A stretch of 64,000 bases of DNA from a virus. This document shows, one piece after another, positions 278 through 42,129 of the stretch. The stretch lies in the IMG/VR virus record IMGVR_UViG_3300050821_011467, positions 1-64,000 of that record; one strand, given 5' to 3'. Each line of letters begins with the position of its first letter. Positions within the stretch are counted from its first letter, which is position 1. The notes below the pieces were generated by a model, which was not told the origin of the DNA, did no database searches, and saw nothing but the letters and a program-made list of their open reading frames with translations. A program made the position numbers and the translations under genes.

Positions 278-3200
278 ATGCCGACGAATGACTTTTTGCC
301 GGTAGCGATTGCGCCCGGCGCCAATGTCATGCCGCAAGCGCAGTGGGTCGCGAGCCCGATCCCGCCGACCGGGTTTACCACCGGGCTGCTGCCGTCGCCG
401 ACGCTGAACAAGGCGCACCGCCAGTCGTCGTTCGTCGCTGCGGGCATCGCCCAGATGATGATGAACACGCTGCACGTCGACGTGCTCGACGACGGCAATT
501 TTACGCAGTTTGTCAGCCGGCTGACTTCGGCGATCGCGACACTGGGCGCCACCGGCACCGGCATCTCCGAGCCACCGACCGACGCGAACATTTACGGTCG
601 CGCGGGGGGCGCGCCTGGCTCCTGGGTGGCGACGATCCGCAAGGCCGGCGACACGATGACCGGGCTCTTGGTGCTGTCCGGCCCTCCGACAGCCGCTCTC
701 GGTGCGGTTACCAAGCAGTACGCCGACGCGATCGGCACCATCGCCAACAACGCGGTGCCGCTCGCCGGCGGCACGATGAGCGGGCCGCTGATCCTGTCGG
801 GTGATCCGAGCTCGGCGTTTCAGGCGGCAACCAAGCGCTATGTCGATACCGTCATCGTCGGCGGTTCGGTTGACGCGCCAAATGACGGGTTTGCCTACGG
901 CCGGCAGACGGTCAGCTGGCAAAAGGTTGTGCCGCTGGGCGGCACCGGGGCCAACCCGATGACCGGGCCGCTGCTGCTGTCGGGTGACCCGACCGCGGCG
1001 CTAGGTGCGGCAACCAAGCAATACGTCGACCGAGTGGGTGGGGTCTCCGAAGCGCCCTCGGACGGCACCACCTATGGCCGCCAGAATGGCATTTGGGACA
1101 ACACCCCCAGTTTTCTTGGCACCAGCATCAGCGGGACCAGCCCGGGCTCGCTGATCATCAACCGCAACACCGCCGCACCGCCGCCGCTCGAGGCGGGCAT
1201 TGCCGCCCCCCTGCGGCTGATCGCTGGTGACAGCGAGACCCAGGCGGTGGTGTGGGACTCGTTTGGCGGCAGCGGCGGCATTCCCGACGCGCTGATCCTG
1301 CGTCACGCAGCAGGAACCAACGTCGCGCCGCAGCCGCTCGGTTTGGGGGCGGCGATGGGTTCGATCGCCTGGCGTGGCTACGGGGCTGCCGGGTATGGTC
1401 TGGGTGCCGCGCGGCTGACCGGGGTCACCACCGAGGATTGGACCACCGGTCCCGGCCGAGGGTCAGGGATACTGATCCAAACCACCCAACCGGGTGCCAC
1501 CGCACCGGTCTTGCAGGCGAGCTTTGGCCCCGGTCTGACGGTTGGCAACCCGACGCAGCCGATCGGCGGGATGCAAATCGGCGACCTCAACGTCCAGCGT
1601 CTGCTGGTCCAAGGACAGGTGCCGACCGGGAGCACCACACCCGGCACCGGCGGCATCCCCGAGGCGCCCTCGGACGGCACCAGCTACAGTCGGCAGAGCG
1701 GTGCGTGGACCAACATCCCGCATTTGCTGGGTGCCATCATCACCGGCACCGCACCCGGCACCCTGACGATCAACCGCAACACGGTCCTGCCCGCACCTCC
1801 GGCCTTTACCACACCCTCGCTGCGGGTGATTGCCGGGGACGGCGAATCCAGTGCGGTCGTGCTCGACGGGTTCGCGAACGTGCTCGCGTTTATGATGCGT
1901 AGCGCACGGGGGACCGCTACAGCTCCGGCGGCGCTGCAGACCGGCGATCAGATGGGCAACTACGCCTGGCGCGGCTACGGCACCACCGGGTGGGGGTCGA
2001 CCGGTGTCGCGCGGATCAGCGCGACCGCGGCCGAGAATTGGACCGACGCGGCACAGGGCACCCAGATCCAGTTGTGGACAACGCCAATCGGCGGCGGCGC
2101 GGGCGGCACCACGCCTGTTGTCACCGCACTGCTGGGGCCGGGTCTGACGGTTGGCAATGCGACCGCACCCATAGGCGGCAACCTGCCGGGCGACATCAAC
2201 GCGATGCGCGTCTTGCAGAACGGCAATCCGGTTACCGGCATCGCCGACGCCTTCGCGGACAGCACCAGCTATGCCCGGCAGAACAACCTTTGGACCAACA
2301 CACCGACATTCCGCGGCACCACGATCAGCGGCACCTCGCCGGGTAGCCTGATCATCAATCGCGGCGCCACCTTGCCGACCCCTCCGGCAGGCGTGGTCAC
2401 ACCGTTCTGGGTGGTTTCCGGCACCGGCGAGCCAACCGCTTATGTGCTCGATACATTTGCCGGGTTTGGCGCGCTGTTGTTCCGCCGCGCCAACACCAGT
2501 GCCACCGCGCCGAGCCACATCAGTCTCGGCGATCAGCTGGGCAACATCGCCTGGCGCGGCTATAGCCCGAGCGGCTACACCAATGCGGTTGCCCGGTTTC
2601 AATGTTACGCGCTTGAAGACTGGACCGACCAGGCGCAAGGCGTGTCGGTGCAATTGCAAACCACCTCACTAGGTGGCGCGAATATCCAAACTCAGGCGAC
2701 CTTTGGTCCGGGGCTGACGATTGGCGGCCCCGTCGCGCCGACGACGGCGATGCAGACCGGCGACCTCAACGCCAATCGGATCTACGTCAACGGCGTTCCT
2801 GTGGCCACGGCCACCGGCGGCGCGTTTTTGCCGCTCGCCGGCGGGACGATCTCCGGCACGACCCCGGGCAGCCTGACAATCCAGCGGGCGGCAACGCTGC
2901 CCGCGGGAGCCGCCAGCGCCAACCCGGTGCTATGGGCGGTTGGCGCCATCAACGAAGTTCCCACGGCGCTGATCGACGGCATCGGCGGGCAGGCGATACT
3001 CATGTTGCGCCGCGCCAACGGCAGCGGCACCACCCCGATCGCCCTCGGCGATATCCTGGGCCAAGTGGCCGTGCGGGGCTATGGCACGACCGGATATCAC
3101 ACTCTCGGCAACGCCCGGCTGCAGTTTACCGCGCTCGAACCCTTCACCGATCAGGCGCAGGGCACCAAGATCGAAGTGCTGACCACCCCGCTGACCTCGG

Positions 3201-6200
3201 CAATTCCTGCGCTGCAGGCGACGTTTGGCCCCGGTCTGACGGTGGGCTCGCCGTCGCAGACGCAACCGAGCCCGACGATCGGCGACATCAACGCGCAACG
3301 CATTTTTATCAACGGTCAACCGGTCGCCGCGGGGAGCGGCATTCTCGACGCGACGAGCGACAGCACCAGCTACTCCCGGCAAAACAATAATTGGGTAAAC
3401 AACCTAACGCTGCGCGGTCTGACGGTAATCGGCACGGCGCCTGGCGCGGCCGTCGTCAACCGCGGCACAGCAATGCCACCCGTGCCGGCACTCGCCGTCC
3501 CGACCTTCTGGGGGGTTGGCGCCCCAGGCGAGGGCAATAGCTTTGTTCTCGATGCGGTGGCTGATTTTGGCGCGATGATCCTGCGCCGCGCCAATGGAAC
3601 CGTCGGCTCACCGCTCCCGATCATTTACGGTGATCAGCTGGGCAACCTGGCTTGGCGCGGTCATGACACGACCGACTATACGACCGCGACCGCCCGATTT
3701 CAGTGTTTTGCCCTTGAGAGCTGGACCGACAGCGCATGGGGATCTGCGATCCAATTGCAGACGACCCCGCCGGGACAGAACACCATCACGACGCAGGCAA
3801 CGTTTGGGCCCGGGTTGACGGTCGGAGTTCCGACCCCGCCGCCTGGCGGGATGCTGATCGGTGACGTCAACGCGCAGCGGGTGCTCGTCAACGGGTTACC
3901 GATCACCGCAACCGGCGGTGGCAGCGGCACCCCGGGCGGCTCGCCCGCTCAGGTGCAGTACAACACCGGGACCGGGTTTGGCGGGTCAAGCGGCGCCACG
4001 TTTAACGGCTCGGCATTGACCTCGATGAACATCGCGCTCAGTGGTGACGGCGCAGGCGATATGTACTATCGGGCAGCCAGCGGGGCACTGACCAAACTGA
4101 CTCTCGGGACGGCTGGGCAGATCCTTGGGGTTACCGGGAGCGCGCCTGCGTGGCAAACCGTCTCAACCGGCAGCGGCACGGTCCAACCGGGAACCGCAGC
4201 GCAGCTCGCCCAATATCCGGGGCCGACTTCGAGCTCGGTAGTTGCTGGCGTCACGGTTAGCGGCGACGCGACGATCGCGGCCGGCGGCGTGCTGTCGCTC
4301 ACCAACGCAGTGACAGCCGCGACCGTCCAGGGGATTTCCTTTAACGCCCGCGGGCTGATCACCGGTGCAGCCAACCAGAATTACGTAACCGCGGGCGCGG
4401 TGGCCGCGAGCTACCTGCCGCAGGCAGGAGGCACGATCAGCGGGATCTCGCCGGGTCAATTGATCATCAACCGCAATACGACTTTGCCGCCGGTGCCAAG
4501 CGGTACGGTCACCCCGTTTTGGGTGGTCTCGGGAAATGGCGAAACCGCCGCTTATGTGCTGGACACGTTCGCTAATTTTGGGTCGTTGATCTTTCGTCGG
4601 GCTAATGGCACGCCGTCCACCCTCCTGACACAGATCAACAGCGGCGATCAGCTCGGCAACCTTGCATGGCGCGGCTATGACGGGAGTGCCGGCTTTAGCC
4701 CTACCGGCAACGCGCGCTTTCAGTGCATTGCAACCCAAGACTGGATTGACGCCAATCATCGCGGCACGGCGGTGTCGGTGTGGACGACTCCGACCGACAG
4801 CGGGGCGATAGCGCAGCAGGCCGTCTTTAGCGGTACCGGTCTGGTCGTCGGCAACCCGTCGCCGCCATCGGGCGGCGCCGTATTCGGCGACATCAACGCA
4901 AACCGCATCATGGTGAATGGGGCCGTCGTCGGCACGGGCAGCTTTCCCGAGGCGACCAGCGATGGCACCAGCTATTCCCGGCAAAATGCTGGCTGGACCA
5001 ACACGCCGAACGTTCGCGGCATGGTCGTCAGCACCCCGACCTCATTTGCAACTGCCGCCGTATCCGGCTCGCTGATCATCAACCGCAACACCGCAGCCCC
5101 GCCAGCAATCGAGGGAAGCATTGTGGCGCCCTTGCGGTTGGTTGCCGGCGATCTCGAAACCCAGGTGGTGATGTGGGACTCGTTTGGCGCCAGCGGCGGC
5201 ATTCCCGACGCGCTGATTATGCGCCATGCGAACAACACCAACGCCTCGCCCGCGCCGCTCAACCAGAACGATGCGATGGGCGCGGTTGCCTGGCGTGGAT
5301 ATGGGCAGAGCGGCTACGGTCTTGGGTCAGCGCGGGTGATGGCTGTGGCATCCGAGGCCTGGACCGGCAGCGGGCGCGGTTCGGCGGTGCAGATCTGGGC
5401 CACCCAGGCGGGCGGCCCCACCACCCCGACCCTCCAAGCGACCTATGGCCCGGCAGGGCTTACGGTGGGCAGCCCGACGGGCACGCAGCCAACTCCGGCC
5501 GTCGGCGACATCAACTGCCGTCGCATCTTTATCGACGGCAACCCGTTTACCGGCGGGAGCACCACGCCTGGCGGCTCGACCGGGAATGTCCAATACAACA
5601 CTGGAATCACTTTTGGCGGTTCGACCGGCGCCATCTTCAGCTCGACGCAATTGACCTCGCTGGCGGTCGGAATTGGTGCCGGCAGCGACCAGACCGGCGA
5701 CCTCTACTATCGCAACGCGAGCGGACTTCTGGCACGCCTACCTCTGGGGAATCCGGGTTATCTGCTGCAGGTCTCTGGCGGTCTGCCCTCCTGGCAACCC
5801 GTGGCGACCGGCGGTGGCACGGTCAATTCAGGCACGCAAGGGCAGATAGCCCAATACACCGGACCACTCACGACCTCGGCGGTTGCCGGTGTGACGGTGA
5901 CCGGCGCCATATCGATCGCCAATGGCGGGGCGACGTCGCTCAATTCGGGCGTTGTCGGCTACGGGAACATAGTAGCCGTCTCGGGCGCGCGGCTGCTCGG
6001 CAGCCCGACCGGCGGCACGGTCAGCGAGATTTCGTTAGGAGCGAGTCTCCAGTTTGTCGGTTCCACGCTCAATGTCACCGGCGGTCCATATATCCCGACC
6101 GCGGGTGGGACGATCAGCGGGACGACGCCCGGCACCCTGACGATCAATCGCGCCCCCTCATTGCCGACCGCACCTACCGGCATCACCGCGGTCCCGTTGT

Positions 6201-8572
6201 GGGTTGTCGGCAATAACGGCGAAAACACGGCGATCCTCAATGATGCGATTGGCATCGGGATGTCGTTTCTGCTGCGCCGCGCCAATGGCACCCTGCCCTC
6301 CTCGCTGTCCGGGATCATCCAGAACGATCTGATCGGCAACCTCGCCTGGCGCGGCTATGACACCAGCCCCGGCTACACCACGGCGGTGGCGCGGATCGGC
6401 GCGGTGGCGCTGCAAAATTTTGGCCCCGGCGCGTGGGGCACGCAGCTGACATTTTCTGCCATCCCGTTTAACTCGGCGACGCTGCCAACGTCGATTGCGA
6501 CGATGGGCCCGGGGTTGACGGTCGGCTCGGGAGTTAATCTGCCGCCCGCTCCTGTGGGCGGGGATCAGCCGGGCGACGTCAACTGCTGGCGGTTGCTGGT
6601 CCAAGGGCAGGTGCCGGCAACGGGCAGCGGGTCACCCCCGGGCGGTGCGGCCAACCAGGTTCAGTATTACCTCAGTTCAACCACGTTTGGCGGGTCGACC
6701 GGCGCCACCTTTAGCAGCTCGTCGCTGACTTCGCTTAATATAGCAATCGCCGCCGGCGCGGACGCCACCGGCGATATTTGGTATCGCGCGGCCTCGGGCG
6801 CGCTGACGCGCGTGCCATCCGGTAGCAACGGCAATCTGCTGCAGCTCGTTAGCGGATTGCCCTCCTGGCAGCCCGTTTCAACCGGTGGCGGCCAGGTCAA
6901 TACTGGCACCGGGCCTCAGATCGCCCAGTATTCGTCGGGCATAAGTCAGACAGTTGCCGGGGCCACGATGAGCGGCGACGTGACGATCGCGCAAGGCGGG
7001 GTCACGTCGATCGGTGCGAACCGGGTGCTCACCGCGATGATCAACAACAACGCCGTCAGCTACGCCAAGATGCAAACCACCGTATCGGCGGCGGTCTTGC
7101 TCGGCAATCCGGGGGTGGCGGGAACTCTGAGCGAAATCCCGCTCGGCGCCGGGCTCAACTTTTCCGGCGGCGCGCTGGTTGCCACGGTGACGTCGACCGG
7201 TGTTTCGGGCATGACTTCGGGGCAGATCCCGATCGCAGCTTCGGGCACGACGATCACCTCGAGCGCGAACCTCAGTGGCGATGTGGTCAGCACCGCGACA
7301 ACGCTGGCGACGCTCATTCAGCCCTTGGTCGTGACGACCGGCAAGATCGCCAACCTCGCCGTCACCTACGCGAAGATGCAAAATGTCGCGCTGGCCAGCC
7401 GACTGCTGGGCAACCCGACGGTGACGGCGAACTCGGCCATAACCGAGATCCCGCTGGGCAACAACCTTACGTTCTCGGGCGGCACCACACTCGCCGTGAC
7501 CCCGGCGGGCAGCGCGGGCCAGGTGCAGTTTAACAACGCCGGGACGGCTTTGGGCGGCTGCACGGGCGCGATCTTTAGCACCTCGCAGCTGACCCAGCTC
7601 GCGGTCGGGGTGGGCGCCGGCGCCGACGCCACCGGCGATGTCTGGTTCCGCAACGCCAGCGGCAACATGACCCGTCTCGCGATCGGGACCGCGACCCAGG
7701 TGCTAACCGTATCCGGCGGCTTGCTGCCAAGTTGGGCGGCGCCAACCGGCGGCGGCGGTCTGCCGCTCACCGGCGGCACGATCACCGGCACCGCACCGGG
7801 CAATGTCATCGTCCAGCGGGCCGGCTCGCTGCCGGGTGTGCCGAACCTTGCGACACCGACGTTTTGGGCGGTCGGCAACACGGCCGAGACCCCGACCGTG
7901 GTGATTGATGCGATTGCCGGTGTTCCGGGCATGATCCTGCGCCGCGCCAATGTGACGGGCGCCGGGCCGATCCAAAATAACGATGTGATCGGCAACATCG
8001 GATTTCGCGGATTTGGGGGGTCACAGTATGCCCTCGTCGGCAACGCGCGCATCCTGGTTACCGCGATCCAGACATTTGACGATAGCAATCAGGGCACCAA
8101 GCTCGACATCGTGACCACGCCGCTGAACTCGGCGACACCCCAAGTGCAGGCGACCTTTGACCGCGGTCTGACGGTCGGCCCGACGACACCCGTGCAAGCC
8201 ACTCCGACGGCGGGCGATCTGAACTGTATGCGACTCCTCGTGAACGGATTCGCGATCACTCCGGCCGGGGCCGACACAATAAGCGCTAGCGTTACCGCGG
8301 CGACCGGCGGCCAAGGCACCGTGCCATTGACCAGTCAATTTAATGTCATAACGACCTGCCCCCTCAATGGAGTGGTGACCCTTCGAGCGATCCCGCCGGG
8401 GGATCATTGCATCGTGCGCAACAGCGGCGCTAACCCGCTCGGGATCTATCCATCAAGTGGTGTGCAGATCAACAACCAAGCGGTTAATGCGATACTCGTC
8501 AACACCGTCCTGCCCAACTCGACGATTTACTTCGAGGGGCTAAATTCAACCCAATGTTTCAGCATACCATGA
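278..8572 (+). CDS. Giant tail fibre / receptor-binding protein (2764 aa) with internal repeats
   Basis: N-terminus MPTNDFLP...GANV...GF.TG...LNKAHRQSS...DVLDDG is typical of baseplate-attached myovirus fibres; AATKQY.D and APSDG..YGRQ fibre motifs; nine ~200-aa modules containing W/V/F-RG-Y/H/F. Confidence 0.85.
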   Translation: MPTNDFLPVAIAPGANVMPQAQWVASPIPPTGFTTGLLPSPTLNKAHRQSSFVAAGIAQMMMNTLHVDVLDDGNFTQFVSRLTSAIATLGATGTGISEPPTDANIYGRAGGAPGSWVATIRKAGDTMTGLLVLSGPPTAALGAVTKQYADAIGTIANNAVPLAGGTMSGPLILSGDPSSAFQAATKRYVDTVIVGGSVDAPNDGFAYGRQTVSWQKVVPLGGTGANPMTGPLLLSGDPTAALGAATKQYVDRVGGVSEAPSDGTTYGRQNGIWDNTPSFLGTSISGTSPGSLIINRNTAAPPPLEAGIAAPLRLIAGDSETQAVVWDSFGGSGGIPDALILRHAAGTNVAPQPLGLGAAMGSIAWRGYGAAGYGLGAARLTGVTTEDWTTGPGRGSGILIQTTQPGATAPVLQASFGPGLTVGNPTQPIGGMQIGDLNVQRLLVQGQVPTGSTTPGTGGIPEAPSDGTSYSRQSGAWTNIPHLLGAIITGTAPGTLTINRNTVLPAPPAFTTPSLRVIAGDGESSAVVLDGFANVLAFMMRSARGTATAPAALQTGDQMGNYAWRGYGTTGWGSTGVARISATAAENWTDAAQGTQIQLWTTPIGGGAGGTTPVVTALLGPGLTVGNATAPIGGNLPGDINAMRVLQNGNPVTGIADAFADSTSYARQNNLWTNTPTFRGTTISGTSPGSLIINRGATLPTPPAGVVTPFWVVSGTGEPTAYVLDTFAGFGALLFRRANTSATAPSHISLGDQLGNIAWRGYSPSGYTNAVARFQCYALEDWTDQAQGVSVQLQTTSLGGANIQTQATFGPGLTIGGPVAPTTAMQTGDLNANRIYVNGVPVATATGGAFLPLAGGTISGTTPGSLTIQRAATLPAGAASANPVLWAVGAINEVPTALIDGIGGQAILMLRRANGSGTTPIALGDILGQVAVRGYGTTGYHTLGNARLQFTALEPFTDQAQGTKIEVLTTPLTSAIPALQATFGPGLTVGSPSQTQPSPTIGDINAQRIFINGQPVAAGSGILDATSDSTSYSRQNNNWVNNLTLRGLTVIGTAPGAAVVNRGTAMPPVPALAVPTFWGVGAPGEGNSFVLDAVADFGAMILRRANGTVGSPLPIIYGDQLGNLAWRGHDTTDYTTATARFQCFALESWTDSAWGSAIQLQTTPPGQNTITTQATFGPGLTVGVPTPPPGGMLIGDVNAQRVLVNGLPITATGGGSGTPGGSPAQVQYNTGTGFGGSSGATFNGSALTSMNIALSGDGAGDMYYRAASGALTKLTLGTAGQILGVTGSAPAWQTVSTGSGTVQPGTAAQLAQYPGPTSSSVVAGVTVSGDATIAAGGVLSLTNAVTAATVQGISFNARGLITGAANQNYVTAGAVAASYLPQAGGTISGISPGQLIINRNTTLPPVPSGTVTPFWVVSGNGETAAYVLDTFANFGSLIFRRANGTPSTLLTQINSGDQLGNLAWRGYDGSAGFSPTGNARFQCIATQDWIDANHRGTAVSVWTTPTDSGAIAQQAVFSGTGLVVGNPSPPSGGAVFGDINANRIMVNGAVVGTGSFPEATSDGTSYSRQNAGWTNTPNVRGMVVSTPTSFATAAVSGSLIINRNTAAPPAIEGSIVAPLRLVAGDLETQVVMWDSFGASGGIPDALIMRHANNTNASPAPLNQNDAMGAVAWRGYGQSGYGLGSARVMAVASEAWTGSGRGSAVQIWATQAGGPTTPTLQATYGPAGLTVGSPTGTQPTPAVGDINCRRIFIDGNPFTGGSTTPGGSTGNVQYNTGITFGGSTGAIFSSTQLTSLAVGIGAGSDQTGDLYYRNASGLLARLPLGNPGYLLQVSGGLPSWQPVATGGGTVNSGTQGQIAQYTGPLTTSAVAGVTVTGAISIANGGATSLNSGVVGYGNIVAVSGARLLGSPTGGTVSEISLGASLQFVGSTLNVTGGPYIPTAGGTISGTTPGTLTINRAPSLPTAPTGITAVPLWVVGNNGENTAILNDAIGIGMSFLLRRANGTLPSSLSGIIQNDLIGNLAWRGYDTSPGYTTAVARIGAVALQNFGPGAWGTQLTFSAIPFNSATLPTSIATMGPGLTVGSGVNLPPAPVGGDQPGDVNCWRLLVQGQVPATGSGSPPGGAANQVQYYLSSTTFGGSTGATFSSSSLTSLNIAIAAGADATGDIWYRAASGALTRVPSGSNGNLLQLVSGLPSWQPVSTGGGQVNTGTGPQIAQYSSGISQTVAGATMSGDVTIAQGGVTSIGANRVLTAMINNNAVSYAKMQTTVSAAVLLGNPGVAGTLSEIPLGAGLNFSGGALVATVTSTGVSGMTSGQIPIAASGTTITSSANLSGDVVSTATTLATLIQPLVVTTGKIANLAVTYAKMQNVALASRLLGNPTVTANSAITEIPLGNNLTFSGGTTLAVTPAGSAGQVQFNNAGTALGGCTGAIFSTSQLTQLAVGVGAGADATGDVWFRNASGNMTRLAIGTATQVLTVSGGLLPSWAAPTGGGGLPLTGGTITGTAPGNVIVQRAGSLPGVPNLATPTFWAVGNTAETPTVVIDAIAGVPGMILRRANVTGAGPIQNNDVIGNIGFRGFGGSQYALVGNARILVTAIQTFDDSNQGTKLDIVTTPLNSATPQVQATFDRGLTVGPTTPVQATPTAGDLNCMRLLVNGFAITPAGADTISASVTAATGGQGTVPLTSQFNVITTCPLNGVVTLRAIPPGDHCIVRNSGANPLGIYPSSGVQINNQAVNAILVNTVLPNSTIYFEGLNSTQCFSIP

Positions 8573-31780: not shown

Positions 31781-32074
31781 ATGTTCAACGTCGAAATGAA
31801 TGCCGCCCAGCTAATCGTGCACCTCAACGAGCCGATGATTGCCGCGACGGCGCTGGTCGCCGGCACAAGCACCTTGATCGCGCTCAATTTGCGTCGGCTG
31901 CGGCCCTACCTGCAATGCGCCGCAGTGGTGGCACTAATGCTGGCAAACGGCGCGATGATGGCGCTTTTTGTGCGAACCGCACAACTCAACGATACTCGCG
32001 CTTACGCTGAGGCGAAGGCGCATCATCCCGAGCTCTTGCGCTATTGGCACCCAGATATCGAGACTGTCGAATGA
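31781..32074 (+). CDS. Small membrane protein
   Basis: AAGGA RBS; two hydrophobic segments. Confidence 0.5.
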   Translation: MFNVEMNAAQLIVHLNEPMIAATALVAGTSTLIALNLRRLRPYLQCAAVVALMLANGAMMALFVRTAQLNDTRAYAEAKAHHPELLRYWHPDIETVE

Positions 32075-32481
32075 TCTCGATTGCCGAGGCGGCGGCTCCG
32101 GTGATCGACAACCTGCGCCGCGTCGTCGAGCTGCGCGAATTAATCGAGGCGCTCGACCGGGGTGCAGGGCCAGCGGGGATGCCGGTGCGGCGCTGGCACA
32201 ATCTGCTCGACGACAGCGCGATGTTTTTTGCCGATGATCCGGGCTGGGGCTTGTTGGCCTTGGACCTTGGCTGGACCCCCCGCCAGCTGCTCGGTGCCAA
32301 TCGCACCAAGCCCTATGCCCGGATCGACCAGCAGGGTCTGCTGTGGTTGGTCGCGGGCAACCACATCGAATATCTCGACGAGGCTGGTTGCGTGCTGATC
32401 ACCCGCTCGAACTCGTTTCTGACGTACCGGGCTCGACCGCACCCGCTCGAGGAAATTTGTATGCCGTGGGAATTCACATGA
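32071..32481 (+). CDS. Hypothetical phage protein
   Basis: F...WG..AL.LGW....L.G......ARID..GLLW pattern; ATGA coupling. Confidence 0.65.
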   Translation: MISIAEAAAPVIDNLRRVVELRELIEALDRGAGPAGMPVRRWHNLLDDSAMFFADDPGWGLLALDLGWTPRQLLGANRTKPYARIDQQGLLWLVAGNHIEYLDEAGCVLITRSNSFLTYRARPHPLEEICMPWEFT

Positions 32482-32729
32482 TCGGCACATCGAAAACCCG
32501 CGAGATCATCGCGATCGTCGAGCAGATCAAGCCGCTGCTGGCCGGGCAAAAGCCCGAGGTCATTGCCGCCGTCCTCGCCGACCTGATGGCGATCCTGCTA
32601 GCCGGGCATTACGCCGAGGGCGACGAAAACGAGACCCGTAAAATGCGCGCCGAATTGTTGGCGATGCACTGTGCCAAGGTCCGCGAGCTGACGAGGATCA
32701 ACGCCGAGATCATGGGAACCACGCCATGA
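32478..32729 (+). CDS. Hypothetical phage protein
   Basis: IKPLLAGQ.PEV..AVLADL.A.LLAGH; ATGA coupling. Confidence 0.65.
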   Translation: MIGTSKTREIIAIVEQIKPLLAGQKPEVIAAVLADLMAILLAGHYAEGDENETRKMRAELLAMHCAKVRELTRINAEIMGTTP

Positions 32730-33001
32730 GGGAGAAGCCGATGCTCAAACGCGCGACGATCCGCCCGGCCCAGCCTCGCCCAAAGGTGCACGAAATTGGC
32801 GTCGGCGCGCATGTCATCGCCGCGGTACATGGCGACGGCAAGCTGCGCATCAACTGGCCCCAGGTTGAGGCTCTGGCTAGCGAGGCGGTTCCCCCTGCGA
32901 GTTTTGACATCATGCTCGACAGCGTGGCCGCGGCGCGAGTGCTCGCTCGCCTGCTGATCGTCGCCCGCAGCTCCGCGCAAGACGGATTAAATGCCCGCTA
33001 A
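32726..33001 (+). CDS. Hypothetical protein
   Basis: ATGA coupling; last gene before the array leader. Confidence 0.55.
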   Translation: MREKPMLKRATIRPAQPRPKVHEIGVGAHVIAAVHGDGKLRINWPQVEALASEAVPPASFDIMLDSVAAARVLARLLIVARSSAQDGLNAR

Positions 33002-33100
33002 GGCCGATTTGCCGGCCGCTGAGTGGCCTTGGCACCGGTGGTCGTGTGGGGGTTCCCCGTCCGGGCGAGAAACGCGCCCCACGGGCTCCGTAGGGGTTTC

Positions 33101-33655
33101 GAGCGAGCCATGAAGGTCGAGAGCACCATTTGAGGAGAGCGAGCCACTACAAGCGAGAGCACCAGAACGTCGGAGCGATCCACATTCCGCGAGAGCACCA
33201 AAGATCGAGAGCGAGCGCGAGCCACTGAGTGAGAGAGTACCAAAGGCGTTGAGCGAGCCAAGGTCAATGAGAGCACCACATTCGGCGAGCGAGCCAGAAT
33301 TGCTGAGAGCGCCATAATCGAGGAGCGAGCCACACCGCGGGAGAGCACCAAAAAGGCCGAGCGAGCCACGTTTGGTGAGAGCACCACAGAGGACGAGCGA
33401 GCCAGGAGGTCCGAGAGTACCAGGGGCCCAGAGCGAGCCAAAACGGAGGAGAGCACCAGGGGGCGTGAGCGAGCCATAACGGCAGAGAGCACCATGGTAA
33501 TTGAGCGAGCCACTGAAGGTGAGAGCACCACTGAAGGAGGAGCGAGCCACGCGCCAGGAGAGCACCACGGAATTTGAGCGAGCCAAAGCGTACGAGAGCA
33601 CCAGTGTCGTAGAGCGAGCCATAACGGCAGAGAGCACCATAAAAGCAGAGCGAGG
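33101..33655 (+). repeat. TIGR-type dual-repeat guide-RNA array, upstream part (15 units of 36 nt)
   Basis: GAGCGAGCCA and GAGAGCACCA alternate, separated by variable 8-nt spacers; only one 6-nt and one 1-nt insertion disturb the period; ends in a partial repeat GAGCGAGG. Confidence 0.9.
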
Positions 33656-33661
33656 AAAAAG

Positions 33662-34459
33662 ATGGCCAACATAGATCTTGAGCCGGTAAGGCGACTGAGT
33701 CGCGATATTCGCCAGGCGGCGCTGGTATTGGGCGACGAAGAAGCCCGCTACCTATGTGATGCTTATTACATCATGCAGGACGACAGAAAGCGGACGTTCG
33801 CGCAGCAACGCACGCTCGGCGAGAACGCCGAGCCCAATCTCGTGATAGGATGGCTGGCCGATCAATCGGCGACACTGGAAACTCAAATCAAGTCGGCATT
33901 GGATGTCTATACCAAAGGCCACGAAATGGGTTCTTGGATGCGGTCGATCTATGGCGTGGGGCCCGTGATCAGCGCCGGCCTGTTGGCGCATATCGACATT
34001 GAGAAATGTCCGACCGTGGGTCACATCTGGCAATTCGCCGGCATTGCCGGGGCTGGTCAAAAGCCCTGGGACAGGGGCACCAAGCGCCCCTTCAACGCCC
34101 AGCTCAAAACTTTATGCTGGAAGGCCGGGCAGTCGTTCATGAAGTTCTCCAATCAGGAGGAGTGCGTTTACGGGCGCCACTATCGAGAGCAAAAAGCCAA
34201 ATACATTGCCAAGAATGATGCTGACGGCTTCCGCGATCGTGCATTAGAACGCGCCCCCAAGGTCGGCAAGACCACAGAAGCCTTTAAGCATTACAGCATC
34301 GGCAAGTTGCCGCCCGGCCATATCGACGCAATGGCTCGGCGCTGGGCTGTAAAGCTGTTCCTCGCGCATCTGCACAGTGAATGGCACCAGCGGCATTTTG
34401 GCAGGCCCGCGCCGCTACCGTATCCGATCGCCGTTCTTGGGCACGCCCATATAATCTAG
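33662..34459 (+). CDS. tasA: TasA-like Nop-domain RNA-binding protein (IS110/Nop related, no nuclease domain)
   Basis: Helical N-terminus, then SIYGVGPVISAGLLAHIDIEKCPTVGHIWQFAG and C-terminal HIDAMARRWAVKLFLAHL, resembling the IS110 C-terminal/Nop fold; no RuvC (DEDD), HNH or catalytic SG motif seen; flanked by the array. Confidence 0.8.
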   Translation: MANIDLEPVRRLSRDIRQAALVLGDEEARYLCDAYYIMQDDRKRTFAQQRTLGENAEPNLVIGWLADQSATLETQIKSALDVYTKGHEMGSWMRSIYGVGPVISAGLLAHIDIEKCPTVGHIWQFAGIAGAGQKPWDRGTKRPFNAQLKTLCWKAGQSFMKFSNQEECVYGRHYREQKAKYIAKNDADGFRDRALERAPKVGKTTEAFKHYSIGKLPPGHIDAMARRWAVKLFLAHLHSEWHQRHFGRPAPLPYPIAVLGHAHII

Positions 34460-34638
34460 CCAAATGGAGAGCACCAAAACGCACGAGCGAGCCACTACAA
34501 CAGAGAGTACCAGGGGGCGTGAGCGAGCCACGCCGCAGGAGAGCACCACGGGATCTGAGCGAGCCAAGGGGTGGGAGAGCACCATTGGTCATGAGCGAGC
34601 CAAGGTTTGAGAGAGCACCAGAAACCCCGAGCGAGCCA
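34458..34638 (+). repeat. TIGR-type array, downstream part (10 repeats at exact 18-nt spacing)
   Basis: Same two repeats alternate from 34467 to 34638; partial AGCCA overlaps the tas stop codon. Confidence 0.9.
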
Positions 34639-34662
34639 GCGCCCTATCGAGAACATGGGGAA

Positions 34663-34863
34663 ATGACGACCGAAAACGATGATCTAGCGTGGACAGAAGT
34701 TGCTCGTTTCTACCTCTACGAGGCGAGCATAACCGATGATTTCGACGAAAGGCGGAAGTTACAGAAAAAAGCTGAATCCGCCTTGAGGAGATGCCTGAAT
34801 CCCGAGACGGTTAGGATGCAGCTTACGGGAACTGTATATCGTGACGATATTCCACAGGATTGA
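34663..34863 (+). CDS. Small acidic hypothetical protein directly after the array
   Basis: GGGG RBS; MTTENDDLAWTEVARFYL... Confidence 0.6.
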   Translation: MTTENDDLAWTEVARFYLYEASITDDFDERRKLQKKAESALRRCLNPETVRMQLTGTVYRDDIPQD

Positions 34864-34884
34864 CGCGGAATATTTTGCGGGTTA

Positions 34885-35457
34885 GTGGCTGCGGGTGTGA
34901 CCCGCCGTCGCCTAAAAGCCCGCCGCGACCGCCGCGGGCGCCCCCGTAAAGCCACCGCCCGGCATCGTGCGACAACCGTTGCCGGCCGCGCCGCGCCGCC
35001 CGATCTGGGCACCGATGAGCTGCGGCGTCATCGGCTCGCCGCAACCACGCAGAGTGGACTGCCCGACGACCTGTTGGGCGTGCTCTATGGGCGCGCGGTC
35101 ATCGATCTCGAGCAATACACCGCCGGCCGCGACTTTTCCGATGTCGTGCGTCTGGTGCGCCTCGGGCTCGGGCTGACCGAGGCCTCGCCGGCGGGGGCCT
35201 GGCGCAATATCCTCAGTGCCGCCAGCGCCGGCCGTGCCACGATTGTCGATGTGGCCTATCCCGGTGCCGACAGCGCGCGGCGCGCACTGATCCGCTTTCG
35301 CCGCGAACTCGGGCGGGCTAGCTGGGCCGCGGTCAATGCCGCTGCCGACAATATTTGGCCGATCGGTGAGTTTCCGCGGTTTGTGATGAATTTGCGGCCG
35401 GGGCTGGATTATCTTGCGGTGCGGTTGCCGCTGTCGAGCCGGCGGGTGGCGCGTTAA
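34885..35457 (+). CDS. Basic DNA-binding protein, possible late-gene regulator
   Basis: RRGRPRK AT-hook; L..LY.R..ID..QY.AG motif; last gene of the rightward operon. Confidence 0.55.
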   Translation: MAAGVTRRRLKARRDRRGRPRKATARHRATTVAGRAAPPDLGTDELRRHRLAATTQSGLPDDLLGVLYGRAVIDLEQYTAGRDFSDVVRLVRLGLGLTEASPAGAWRNILSAASAGRATIVDVAYPGADSARRALIRFRRELGRASWAAVNAAADNIWPIGEFPRFVMNLRPGLDYLAVRLPLSSRRVAR

Positions 35458-35467
35458 ACTTCTATCA

Positions 35468-35510
35468 AAATAATAATATTTATTATCGAGCTTCGTGAAT
35501 ATTATTATTT
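35468..35510. promoter_or_regulatory. 13-bp perfect AT-rich inverted repeat, copy 2 of the shared element
   Basis: AAATAATAATATT-N17-AATATTATTATTT; TTGACG -35-like box at 35537 downstream. Confidence 0.55.
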
Positions 35511-35633
35511 TTTATCGGCGTAATTGTAAATTTTGCTTGACGCCCACAAGATATGCCTAACTATGCGAATTAAAGGAGAATGCGGCGGCGTGCCTCCGCA
35601 GCTCCCTCAGCCGATAATCAGCTTAACGATCGC

Positions 35634-35855
35634 TCACGGCTTGCCTCCGGTGAACCCGCGCATGCCGTGGCGCATGGTTCCGTCAGGCTCGTGGTCTTCG
35701 TAGGCAGTTTCCATAGCCTCGATCTCGGCCTTGTGGTCGGCGTCGATGGCGGCAAATGCCTGGTTGATTTCGCGGATGACGGCGGCCCGCAAGGGCACAT
35801 AGTCACCGCGGCTCTCGCTGACCGCGATATGCCAGATTTGCTCACCCAAGGTCAC
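35634..35855 (-). CDS. Small hypothetical protein
   Basis: GTGA-coupled to the upstream gene. Confidence 0.55.
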   Translation of the reverse strand: MTLGEQIWHIAVSESRGDYVPLRAAVIREINQAFAAIDADHKAEIEAMETAYEDHEPDGTMRHGMRGFTGGKP

Positions 35856-36049
35856 GGCAGGCTGTCCCTGGCTGAGCGGCGGATGTAGAGCGGCACCTGG
35901 CGCCACAGCACCGTGGCGTCGAGTGACCGATCGGCCGCGCCCATGCGCCAGGCGCGCAGCTTGCGGGCGCCGCGTCTGGTGGGTTCGATGACATAGGTCT
36001 GGGCGCTGGCAATGTCGGTAACCATCAGCCAGGGCAGGGGCGTCGTCAC
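35852..36049 (-). CDS. Small hypothetical protein
   Basis: Starts in the conserved junction linker. Confidence 0.55.
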   Translation of the reverse strand: MTTPLPWLMVTDIASAQTYVIEPTRRGARKLRAWRMGAADRSLDATVLWRQVPLYIRRSARDSLP

Positions 36050-40961: not shown

Positions 40962-41188
40962 CGCTTGTCGTAATGGACGTGAATTTGCGGTCGGCGCCGG
41001 GCGCGATCCTGCTCGCGTTGCTTGTGCCGCCACAACTCGCCGAGGCTGACCTTCTCGCCGTCGGGCATCACCACGTCGACTTGGTCGGCATGCTCGGCGA
41101 CAAAGCGGTTTTCATCGGTTGGCTCGGGCAACTGAGCCGGTGGGTCTTGGGCCAGATTTCTTCTCCTTCGTGTTAGAGATATAATCAT
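40958..41188 (-). CDS. Small hypothetical protein convergent with the ART gene
   Basis: Ends PQIHVHYDKR; start uncertain. Confidence 0.45.
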   Translation of the reverse strand: MIISLTRRRRNLAQDPPAQLPEPTDENRFVAEHADQVDVVMPDGEKVSLGELWRHKQREQDRARRRPQIHVHYDKR

Positions 41189-42129
41189 TGCCTGCGAAAA
41201 TTGCGACCGCGCCGCACGGGGCCGAGCGCATCGCGCTGCGCGCCACGGCTGCCTTGATACCCTACGCCCGCAACCCGCGCACCCATTCTGACGATCAGGT
41301 GGCGCAGATCGCCGCTTCGATCAGGGAATTCGGTTTTACCAACCCGGTGCTGGTTGACGGCGCCGGCGGGATCATCGCCGGGCATGGCCGCGTGCTGGCG
41401 GCGCAGCAGCTCGGCCTGGCCGAAGTGCCGACCATCGCGCTGGGCTATCTGACGCCGATACAGCGCCGTGCCTACGTCATTGCCGACAACCAGCTCGCGT
41501 TAAATGCCGGCTGGAACCTTGAGCTGCTGCGCCTCGAGATGCAGGCGCTCGACACCGATCACTTTGACCTGTCGCTGACCGGGTTTGGCGAGGATCAGCT
41601 CGCCGATCTGTTGGCTGGGCGCGATCTGCCTGAATTCACCGGCGAGTTTGAGTGGTACACGCCAGCAGAAATCATCGAACCTGCACGATCCGTCCTCGGT
41701 GGGATCGATCTAGACCCGGCTTCGAGCGAGACGGCACAACGCACAATCCGGGCGAAGCGGTACTACACCCGAGAGGATGACGGGCTGAGCAGGAAGTGGC
41801 GCGGGCGCGTCTGGCTCAATCCTCCGTATGCGGCCAATCTGGTCGGCAAGTTCGTCGCCAAGCTCTGCGAGCATGTTGCTGCGGGTGATGTTAAGGCCGC
41901 AATCATGCTGGTCGACGACAGAACCGATACTAGGTGGTTTCACGCGGCCGCTGTTGCGGCGGAGCGGATCTGCTTTCCTGCAGGTCGCATCCACTTCGTC
42001 CGTCCCGCGGGCGATCCGGGCGGGCCGCTGAACGGCTCGGCGCTGTTCTATTTTGGCGGTGCGCCCGATGCTTTCGAGGATGTCTTTGGCAAGATCGGCT
42101 TGGTGTTATGTCGGACCACTAAACCATGA
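41188..42129 (+). CDS. ParB-like domain fused to phage N6-adenine DNA methyltransferase
   Basis: LIPYARNPRTHS..Q..QIA.SI.EFGF.NP...IIAGHGR; EWYTP...DLDPAS...DGL...W...VWLNPPY. Confidence 0.9.
   Translation: MPAKIATAPHGAERIALRATAALIPYARNPRTHSDDQVAQIAASIREFGFTNPVLVDGAGGIIAGHGRVLAAQQLGLAEVPTIALGYLTPIQRRAYVIADNQLALNAGWNLELLRLEMQALDTDHFDLSLTGFGEDQLADLLAGRDLPEFTGEFEWYTPAEIIEPARSVLGGIDLDPASSETAQRTIRAKRYYTREDDGLSRKWRGRVWLNPPYAANLVGKFVAKLCEHVAAGDVKAAIMLVDDRTDTRWFHAAAVAAERICFPAGRIHFVRPAGDPGGPLNGSALFYFGGAPDAFEDVFGKIGLVLCRTTKP

Follow-up and report, generated by a model that had tools for sequence, protein, structure and literature searches.

Introduction

TIGR-Tas systems, a recently discovered family, are compact, bind DNA under the guidance of RNA and do not depend on a motif beside the target. 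In the dual-repeat form of these systems, the arrays consist of two alternating repeats of 8-12 nucleotides (nt) that are separated by short spacers, and they are processed to 36-nt guides called tigRNAs (PMC12045711). Edge and loop repeats alike carry CCA (box C) on their 3' side and a conserved box D on their 5' side, these ends co-vary between the two repeat types, and the arrays finish in a 3'-truncated edge repeat (PMC12045711). Here we describe a locus in a 64,000-nt stretch of viral DNA (IMG/VR virus record IMGVR_UViG_3300050821_011467, positions 1 to 64,000; hereafter the window, from whose first letter all coordinates are counted), where two such arrays flank the gene for a 265-residue Nop-type protein. 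We conclude that this locus is very probably a dual-repeat TIGR-TasA system carried by a phage, and that it represents a further member of the known TIGR-Tas family, not a distinct type.

Among the described systems, FpTIGR of Flavonifractor plautii (Faure et al., Science 2025, PMC12045711) resembles the window locus in its solo-Nop, nuclease-free Tas protein, in its 36-nt units of two alternating short repeats and two short spacers, and in the presence of arrays both upstream and downstream of tas. It is also phage-carried and comprises a single protein with no adaptation genes. When compared by description, FpTIGR differs in having 9-nt spacers (18 nt per guide), whereas those of the window are 8 nt long (16 nt per guide). 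Relative to dual-repeat TIGR-TasA as published, the window tasA also lacks an operonic tasParB gene.

SpTIGR-TasH of Salicola phage CGphi29 (NC_020844; PDB 9w03, 9w04 and 21kl) is phage-borne, as is the window locus. Its array has the form AAGCGAGCCA-N8-AAGACAACCA-N8, which is the same 10+8+10+8 layout as that of the window, and each guide carries 16 nt of variable sequence (PMC12045711). SpTasH shares the Nop plus coiled-coil fold, and its chains are the best Foldseek matches of the window protein, with ~26% identity over the aligned part. However, SpTasH carries an N-terminal HNH nuclease and cuts DNA, and this HNH domain is absent from the window protein. SpTIGR also has a single downstream array with a truncated edge repeat and a clear terminator, whereas the window has two flanking arrays and no terminator was detected there.

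A Nop-type RNA-binding domain is also common to the window protein, TaTasR (PDB 9mty) and the IS110 bridge recombinases (IS621, PDB 8wt6). Both repeats of TaTasR end in CCA (box C), and 9mty is the best PDB sequence match of the window protein, but TasR differs in its RuvC nuclease, its 9-nt spacers and its repeats starting with UG. The IS110 enzymes differ in possessing RuvC-like and catalytic serine domains and in using one bridge RNA with no array.

Two arrays of alternating repeats flank tasA

The features on which the identification of the locus rests are as follows.

33101-33655, + strand: TIGR array 1, with 15 complete 36-nt units (script parse; Tandem Repeats Finder, period 36)
33648-33655, + strand: 3'-truncated terminal edge repeat of array 1, GAGCGAGG (sequence)
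33662-34459, + strand: tasA, encoding a 265-residue solo-Nop Tas protein with a coiled-coil helical hairpin and a Nop domain (sequence and fold)
34467-34638, + strand: TIGR array 2, with 5 loop and 5 edge repeats and 8-nt spacers (script parse)

When parsed by script, the + strand of positions 33101-33655 yields 16 edge-type and 15 loop-type repeats in strict alternation. Both repeats are 10 nt long, and the order within each unit of array 1 is edge GAGCGAGCCA, 8-nt spacer A, loop GAGAGCACCA and 8-nt spacer B. The genomic unit is therefore 10+8+10+8 = 36 nt, and Tandem Repeats Finder independently returns a period of 36 nt, a value that concerns the genomic length only. A single spacer of array 1 is 9 nt long (33531-33539) and the remainder are 8 nt, and one edge repeat in this array contains a 6-nt internal duplication (33209-33224). 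Array 2 comprises 4 complete units preceded by a leading half unit (4.5 units), and its final edge repeat is full-length. Over both arrays there are 41 repeats and 19 complete units, and 37 of the 39 spacers are distinct. The script parse thus bears out the strict alternation with about 39 mostly distinct 8-nt spacers that had been proposed in an initial annotation of this DNA.

As was also noted in that annotation, both repeat types end in CCA, which holds for 40/40 repeats in the detected chains of the window, while the position of box D is occupied by GAG at the 5' end. Exact copies of either 10-mer were not found outside the arrays on either strand of the 64-kb window. The spacers in the window have no C at position 2, a bias that is gone in a pooled set of 261 spacers from related loci. 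An Rfam search of positions 32000-36000 gave no match, and a hairpin leader that the initial annotation placed ahead of array 1 is not supported, given that the folding stability of region 33002-33140 does not exceed that of its dinucleotide shuffles (z = +0.37, with 131/200 shuffles as good).

Judged from its sequence, the window array conforms to the published definition of a dual-repeat TIGR array, the departures being that box D is GAG and that array 2, unlike array 1, does not finish in a truncated edge repeat. The edge repeats of SpTIGR and the window are identical at 9/10 positions, and the loop repeats of the two systems differ at 3/10 positions. The initial annotation had considered that 8-nt spacers with 10-nt repeats might define a distinct subtype, but this suggestion gives way before the shared layout and the near-identical edge repeat of SpTIGR.

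Because 36 is divisible by three, and because two minus-strand frames are stop-free across array 1 (ORFs, or open reading frames, 32987-33640 and 32998-33672), we also weighed whether the 36-nt repeat codes for a protein with 12-residue tandem repeats, such that the likeness to an array is incidental. However, the 9-nt spacer shifts the frame, and the predicted peptide turns from WCS..WLA into VVLS..VARS partway through the array. In addition, the homologous arrays of two related loci (L001, which has a 37-nt period, and L022) contain stops in all six frames, and codon-like constraint is not seen in the variable 8-nt blocks. The stops in L001 and L022 and the mid-array change of the peptide rule out a translated repeat, an explanation to which we assign practically no probability. 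Translation of the repeat had been named in the initial annotation as an outcome that would speak against a TIGR array, and the comparative data speak instead for its absence.

The protein aligns with Tas proteins past their nuclease domains

The 265-residue ORF at 33662-34459 carries, at residues 98-127, the IS110 C-terminal/Nop-like motif quoted in the initial annotation. A sequence search of the PDB with this protein alone matches TasR (9mty, 8e-11), TasH (1e-7) and IS621 (0.011), and the corresponding values with a profile of 20 homologs are 8.9e-17, 1.8e-12 and 1.3e-5. An AlphaFold2 model built on the homolog alignment (predicted local distance difference test score, pLDDT, 84.5; predicted TM-score, pTM, 0.82) is all-helical, with residues 14-86 forming a coiled-coil hairpin. 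In a Foldseek search of the PDB with this model, the first ten places are taken by chains of TasH or TasR (probability 1.00, E 2e-7 to 8e-6, TM-score 0.5-0.64), and these are followed by the bridge recombinases IS621 (1.5e-2) and ISCro4.

A Pfam search at E up to 1 returned only a sub-threshold match to Transposase_20 (E 0.0034) and an insignificant match to DUF1016_N, with no nuclease domain, and there was no match of the 265-residue protein to DEDD_Tnp_IS110 (PF01548). In the profile alignment, the match begins with residue 145 of TasR and residue 104 of TasH, which is past the nuclease domains of both proteins. Because a length of 265 residues leaves no room for a nuclease domain, and because the alignment starts only after these domains, the protein can be assigned to the TasA type.

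The same searches inform on whether the gene encodes a degenerate IS110-family transposase from which the RuvC-like domain has been lost, in which case the repeats would be unrelated debris or remnants of a bridge RNA. The Transposase_20 match, although weak and below the family cut-off, is in keeping with this possibility, as are the weaker sequence and fold matches to IS621 and ISCro4. The protein also matches PHROG 4285 over its full length (3.9e-40), and this family is labelled 'transposase / integration and excision'. However, Tas proteins are far ahead of IS621 both in sequence (9e-17 and 2e-12 versus 1e-5) and in fold (2e-7 versus 1.5e-2). The window protein has 2,489 sequence relatives, almost all of them metagenomic, and most of the best-scoring 120 of these resemble the query in length and align with almost all of it. 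Moreover, a regular array accompanies the gene across phyla, the locus holds an array and not a single bridge RNA, and the Tas-specific Tyr/His processing pair described below is retained. We therefore regard a decayed transposase as highly improbable. The label of PHROG 4285 appears to predate TIGR-Tas and to misdescribe these phage proteins.

The closest homologs of the window protein (P0002 and P0003) are 86-88% identical to it, and the set P0002 to P0007 spans 79-88% identity. Three other close homologs (P0008, P0038 and P0060) have a Cys/His-rich insertion of ~34 residues (for example, ...WCAVCHGHSPEEC...SCPT) after the position of window residue 113. In the sequences of these homologs the insertion resembles a zinc-binding module placed inside the Nop domain, and it is absent from the window protein.

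Candidate guide-processing residues are conserved

SpTasH matures its own guides by means of residues Y289 and H296, which involves a flexible C-terminal region (Nucleic Acids Research 2026, PMC13421893). According to published work, a Tyr/His pair on a C-terminal loop of the Nop domain is a conserved feature of dual-repeat systems that stem-loop systems lack. The corresponding feature of the window is as follows.

34421-34444, + strand: codons Y254 (34421-34423) to H261 (34442-34444), candidate catalytic pair (alignment)

These two residues lie within a conserved C-terminal motif, PLPYPIAxLGHAH. MAFFT pairs window Y254 with SpTasH Y289 and window H261 with SpTasH H296, and the SpTasH residues are found in ...RPLYVQEKLGH... 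as translated from the Salicola phage record. Among 20 homologs, H261 is invariant and Y254 is nearly so. Y254 and H261 are thus a candidate pair for cutting the guide precursor.

The same repeat pair accompanies tas homologs in related loci

Related loci were drawn from viral contigs, metagenomes and prokaryote genomes. In the last of these, a search with the alignment found 20 loci and a search with the single protein found none. A repeat detector was run on both strands, and 15 array-bearing loci are non-redundant. Over the fetched loci, 381 repeats in 36 chains were detected, every one of them on the tas strand and 0 on the other strand. The same repeat pair is present next to tas homologs in ~15 independent loci, where edge and loop repeats alternate in 253/263 neighbouring pairs of the non-redundant set and GAG starts nearly all repeats. 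In one locus (L004), CCG replaces CCA in 21/21 repeats of both types, which is the co-variation between edge and loop repeats that is expected for a symmetric dimer. The 261 pooled 8-nt spacers vary at all eight positions, and no spacer or unit is common to two of the compared loci.

The prokaryote genomes with related loci include those of Propionivibrio, Nitrosomonas, Halomonas, Acidobacteriota, Alphaproteobacteria, Effusibacillus and Gemmatimonadota, and the genome-borne copies presumably sit in prophages. A search for partner genes in ~35 related loci revealed that no gene near the window tasA recurs and that no other neighbour family does so either. The 'neighbour ORF families' that did recur are spurious frames over arrays. 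Given this lack of a recurring neighbour gene, the module consists of tasA and its arrays. Sequence, fold, array anatomy and related loci therefore all agree with the core of the initial annotation, namely that a Nop-type Tas protein without a nuclease is encoded on a phage beside a TIGR array of dual repeats and dual spacers.

Partial array repeats at both ends of tasA

At the end of array 1, the truncated edge repeat overlaps a Shine-Dalgarno-like sequence, GAGGA, that is located 6 nt upstream of the tasA ATG. This 3'-truncated last edge repeat (GAGCGAGGA, 33648-33664 region) likely also serves as the Shine-Dalgarno sequence of tasA. In two relatives (L009 and L029), the tas ORF has its first in-frame ATG likewise at a distance of 6 nt from a preceding edge repeat. 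A further partial repeat is present at the other end of the gene.

34458-34462, + strand: 5'-truncated edge repeat AGCCA overlapping the tasA stop codon (sequence)

The tasA stop codon is located within TAGCCA (34457-34466 junction), which opens array 2 and is followed by 4 nt (AATG) and not by an 8-nt spacer. Based on these letters, the first unit of array 2 looks defective. Ten relatives have a stop codon followed by (G)CCA, 8 or 9 nt and a loop repeat, which indicates that the window copy is a form of this conserved arrangement that has been shortened by 4 nt.

Because the last edge repeat of array 1, a predicted processing site, coincides with the likely ribosome-binding site of tasA, and because the stop codon is inside the first edge repeat of array 2, feedback control is conceivable. 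Guide maturation could feed back on TasA synthesis, although this is the weaker of two speculative ideas that we raise in this study.

Spacers are shared within loci

The spacer TAACGGCA is found twice in array 1, GGGGGCGT is found in both arrays, and the spacers TGAAGGTC and CTGAAGGT are shifted by 1 nt relative to each other. In unit 12, spacer A (CTGAAGGT) is almost identical to spacer B (CTGAAGGAG), and the predicted target of this unit is therefore an inverted repeat. Same-strand sharing of 7-mers between spacers of the window was observed 4 times, versus 0.24 expected. When pooled over 15 loci, same-strand sharing within a locus was observed 11 times versus 0.93 expected (~12 times), and sharing was not above expectation for the opposite strand or for spacers of different loci.

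The same phage is represented in an independent metagenome contig (L012; Ga0210399_10153992), which matches it with 99.84% identity over 1,901 bp and, like the present contig, derives from soil. All three differences (34611, 34618 and 34624) are within 14 nt of each other in the last unit of array 2. Two of these are in the loop repeat, with one breaking box C, and the other is in a spacer. Change seems to be fastest at the far end of the array, with an assembly error in the repeat as an alternative. The other of our two speculative ideas, which we offer tentatively and consider somewhat doubtful, is that the arrays of this clade grow and turn over by local unit duplication and point mutation, with the far end changing fastest.

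Proposed mechanism and search for targets

We propose that array 1, tasA and array 2 are co-transcribed on the + strand. If TasA acts as the structures of TasR and TasH suggest, a TasA dimer would hold each precursor unit via the conserved repeat ends, which are the 5' GAG at the position of box D and the 3' CCA of box C. Residue conservation suggests that Y254 and H261 would then cut within the edge repeats to free ~19 mature 36-nt tigRNAs, each with the loop repeat at its centre, spacer A before it, spacer B after it and half an edge repeat at either end. By homology, the ribonucleoprotein may recognise a 16-bp DNA site, wherein one strand would be bound by the 8-nt spacer A and the adjoining part of the opposite strand by the 8-nt spacer B. 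Because TasA has no nuclease domain, it would be expected to bind and bend DNA without cutting it. The most likely outcome would be a reversible block of transcription or replication of a host gene or of a competing mobile element. RNA-guided repression of transcription by TasA has been reported (2026 preprint, 10.64898/2026.09.09.750476), and the silencing role put forward in the initial annotation would agree with that report.

Several observations weigh against the locus being a functional TIGR-TasA silencing system. Array 2 ends in a full, untruncated edge repeat with no terminator after it, and a simple scan of the + strand around the arrays found no sigma-70-type promoter and no intrinsic terminator. 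The first unit of array 2 carries a 4-nt spacer, and the repeats begin with GAG, versus UG for TasR and AAG for SpTIGR, with only the G in common. The published repression was demonstrated for a stem-loop-type TasA (MbTasA), which is outside the clade of the window protein. Furthermore, a comparison of the 19 complete units with the 74-kb phage genome in both geometries (A+rcB and rcA+B, where rc is the reverse complement) yielded 0 matches at <=1 mismatch. The 2 matches at 2 mismatches compare with 1.1-1.2 per geometry from shuffled spacers, and the counts at 2-3 mismatches equal those of the control. The inverted-repeat target of unit 12 gave 9 matches per geometry against a viral collection, which is the chance level, and these fall at 7 and 8 unrelated sites for the two geometries. 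A 16-nt target is too short for database-wide searching, and unit 12 alone was probed in this manner. The authors of the founding study likewise found no natural targets for TIGR systems in general (PMC12045711).

The targets are not in the phage's own genome. This result bears on whether the locus, while being a true TIGR-TasA system, has another job, for example as a DNA-bending or architectural factor for phage replication, recombination or packaging, or as a recruiter of an effector whose gene lies elsewhere. Such a role would fit the position of the locus between a DnaB-like helicase-primase gene and other early genes, and DNA bending and help to an integrase were suggested as possible TasA roles in the founding paper (PMC12045711). 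Moreover, neither the phage genome nor the viral collection searched with unit 12 provided a match that decides the matter. However, no guide matches the phage genome above chance in either geometry, and the 8-nt words of the guides are neither depleted nor enriched there (118 observed versus 120.8 expected). No gene co-occurs with tasA across loci, and TasA alone can repress in published assays (10.64898/2026.09.09.750476). We therefore judge an architectural or recruiting role to be unlikely, and favor silencing by a dual-repeat TIGR-TasA system.

The phage genome

The genome is represented by one 74,260-bp contig, the first nucleotides of which (at least 50 and fewer than 100; 1-98 versus 74163-74260) recur at position 74,163. 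On the basis of this repeat, the ~74.2-kb genome appears to be complete and either circular or terminally redundant. It encodes a tail fibre, RecT, a DnaB-like helicase-primase, a ParB-N/methyltransferase fusion, a large terminase, a portal, a head protease and a tail sheath, and by this gene content the uncultured virus is a contractile-tailed phage. The tasA locus lies in the block of replication genes. The best GenBank phage matches of the portal, from Burkholderia and Bordetella phages, are only ~50% identical. When 20 ORFs were compared with PHROGs, and four of these also with Pfam, no Cas family was matched in what was not an exhaustive search.

An ORF at 278-8572 (+ strand) encodes 2,764 residues. 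A tail-fibre PHROG is matched by the first 87 of these, and the fibritin neck whisker family by another short segment. Its product is probably a giant tail fibre or host-recognition protein.

One further gene is relevant to the search for partners of TasA.

41188-42129, + strand: fusion of a ParB-N domain and a DNA methyltransferase, just upstream of the large terminase gene

This fusion is the sole ParB-like gene found in the window, and it is 6.7 kb from tasA, beyond a block of minus-strand genes. The initial annotation had named this gene and the 34663 ORF as potential partners, but neither recurs beside tasA in ~35 related loci, and no homolog of the ParB-like gene was found near tasA in these loci. 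A parB-like gene operonic with tasA, the arrangement that characterizes tasParB (Faure et al. 2025, fig. S14), is not present at the window locus. Fusions of ParB-N and a methyltransferase are often found beside the terminase gene in phages, and the present one has no relation to the tasParB partner described in the literature.

Implications

This locus provides a clean example of a dual-repeat TasA system in an apparently complete phage genome, with the residues for self-processing intact. It also offers 19 complete natural guides in an array type that is almost that of SpTasH, and swapping of guides between the two systems could therefore be easy. For the phage proteins grouped in PHROG 4285, the 'transposase' label proves to be misleading. 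The internal duplication and far-end decay described above provide small, quantified hints of how the arrays evolve. If array growth by duplication and mutation is true of this clade, it would contrast with the CRISPR-style acquisition of foreign DNA.

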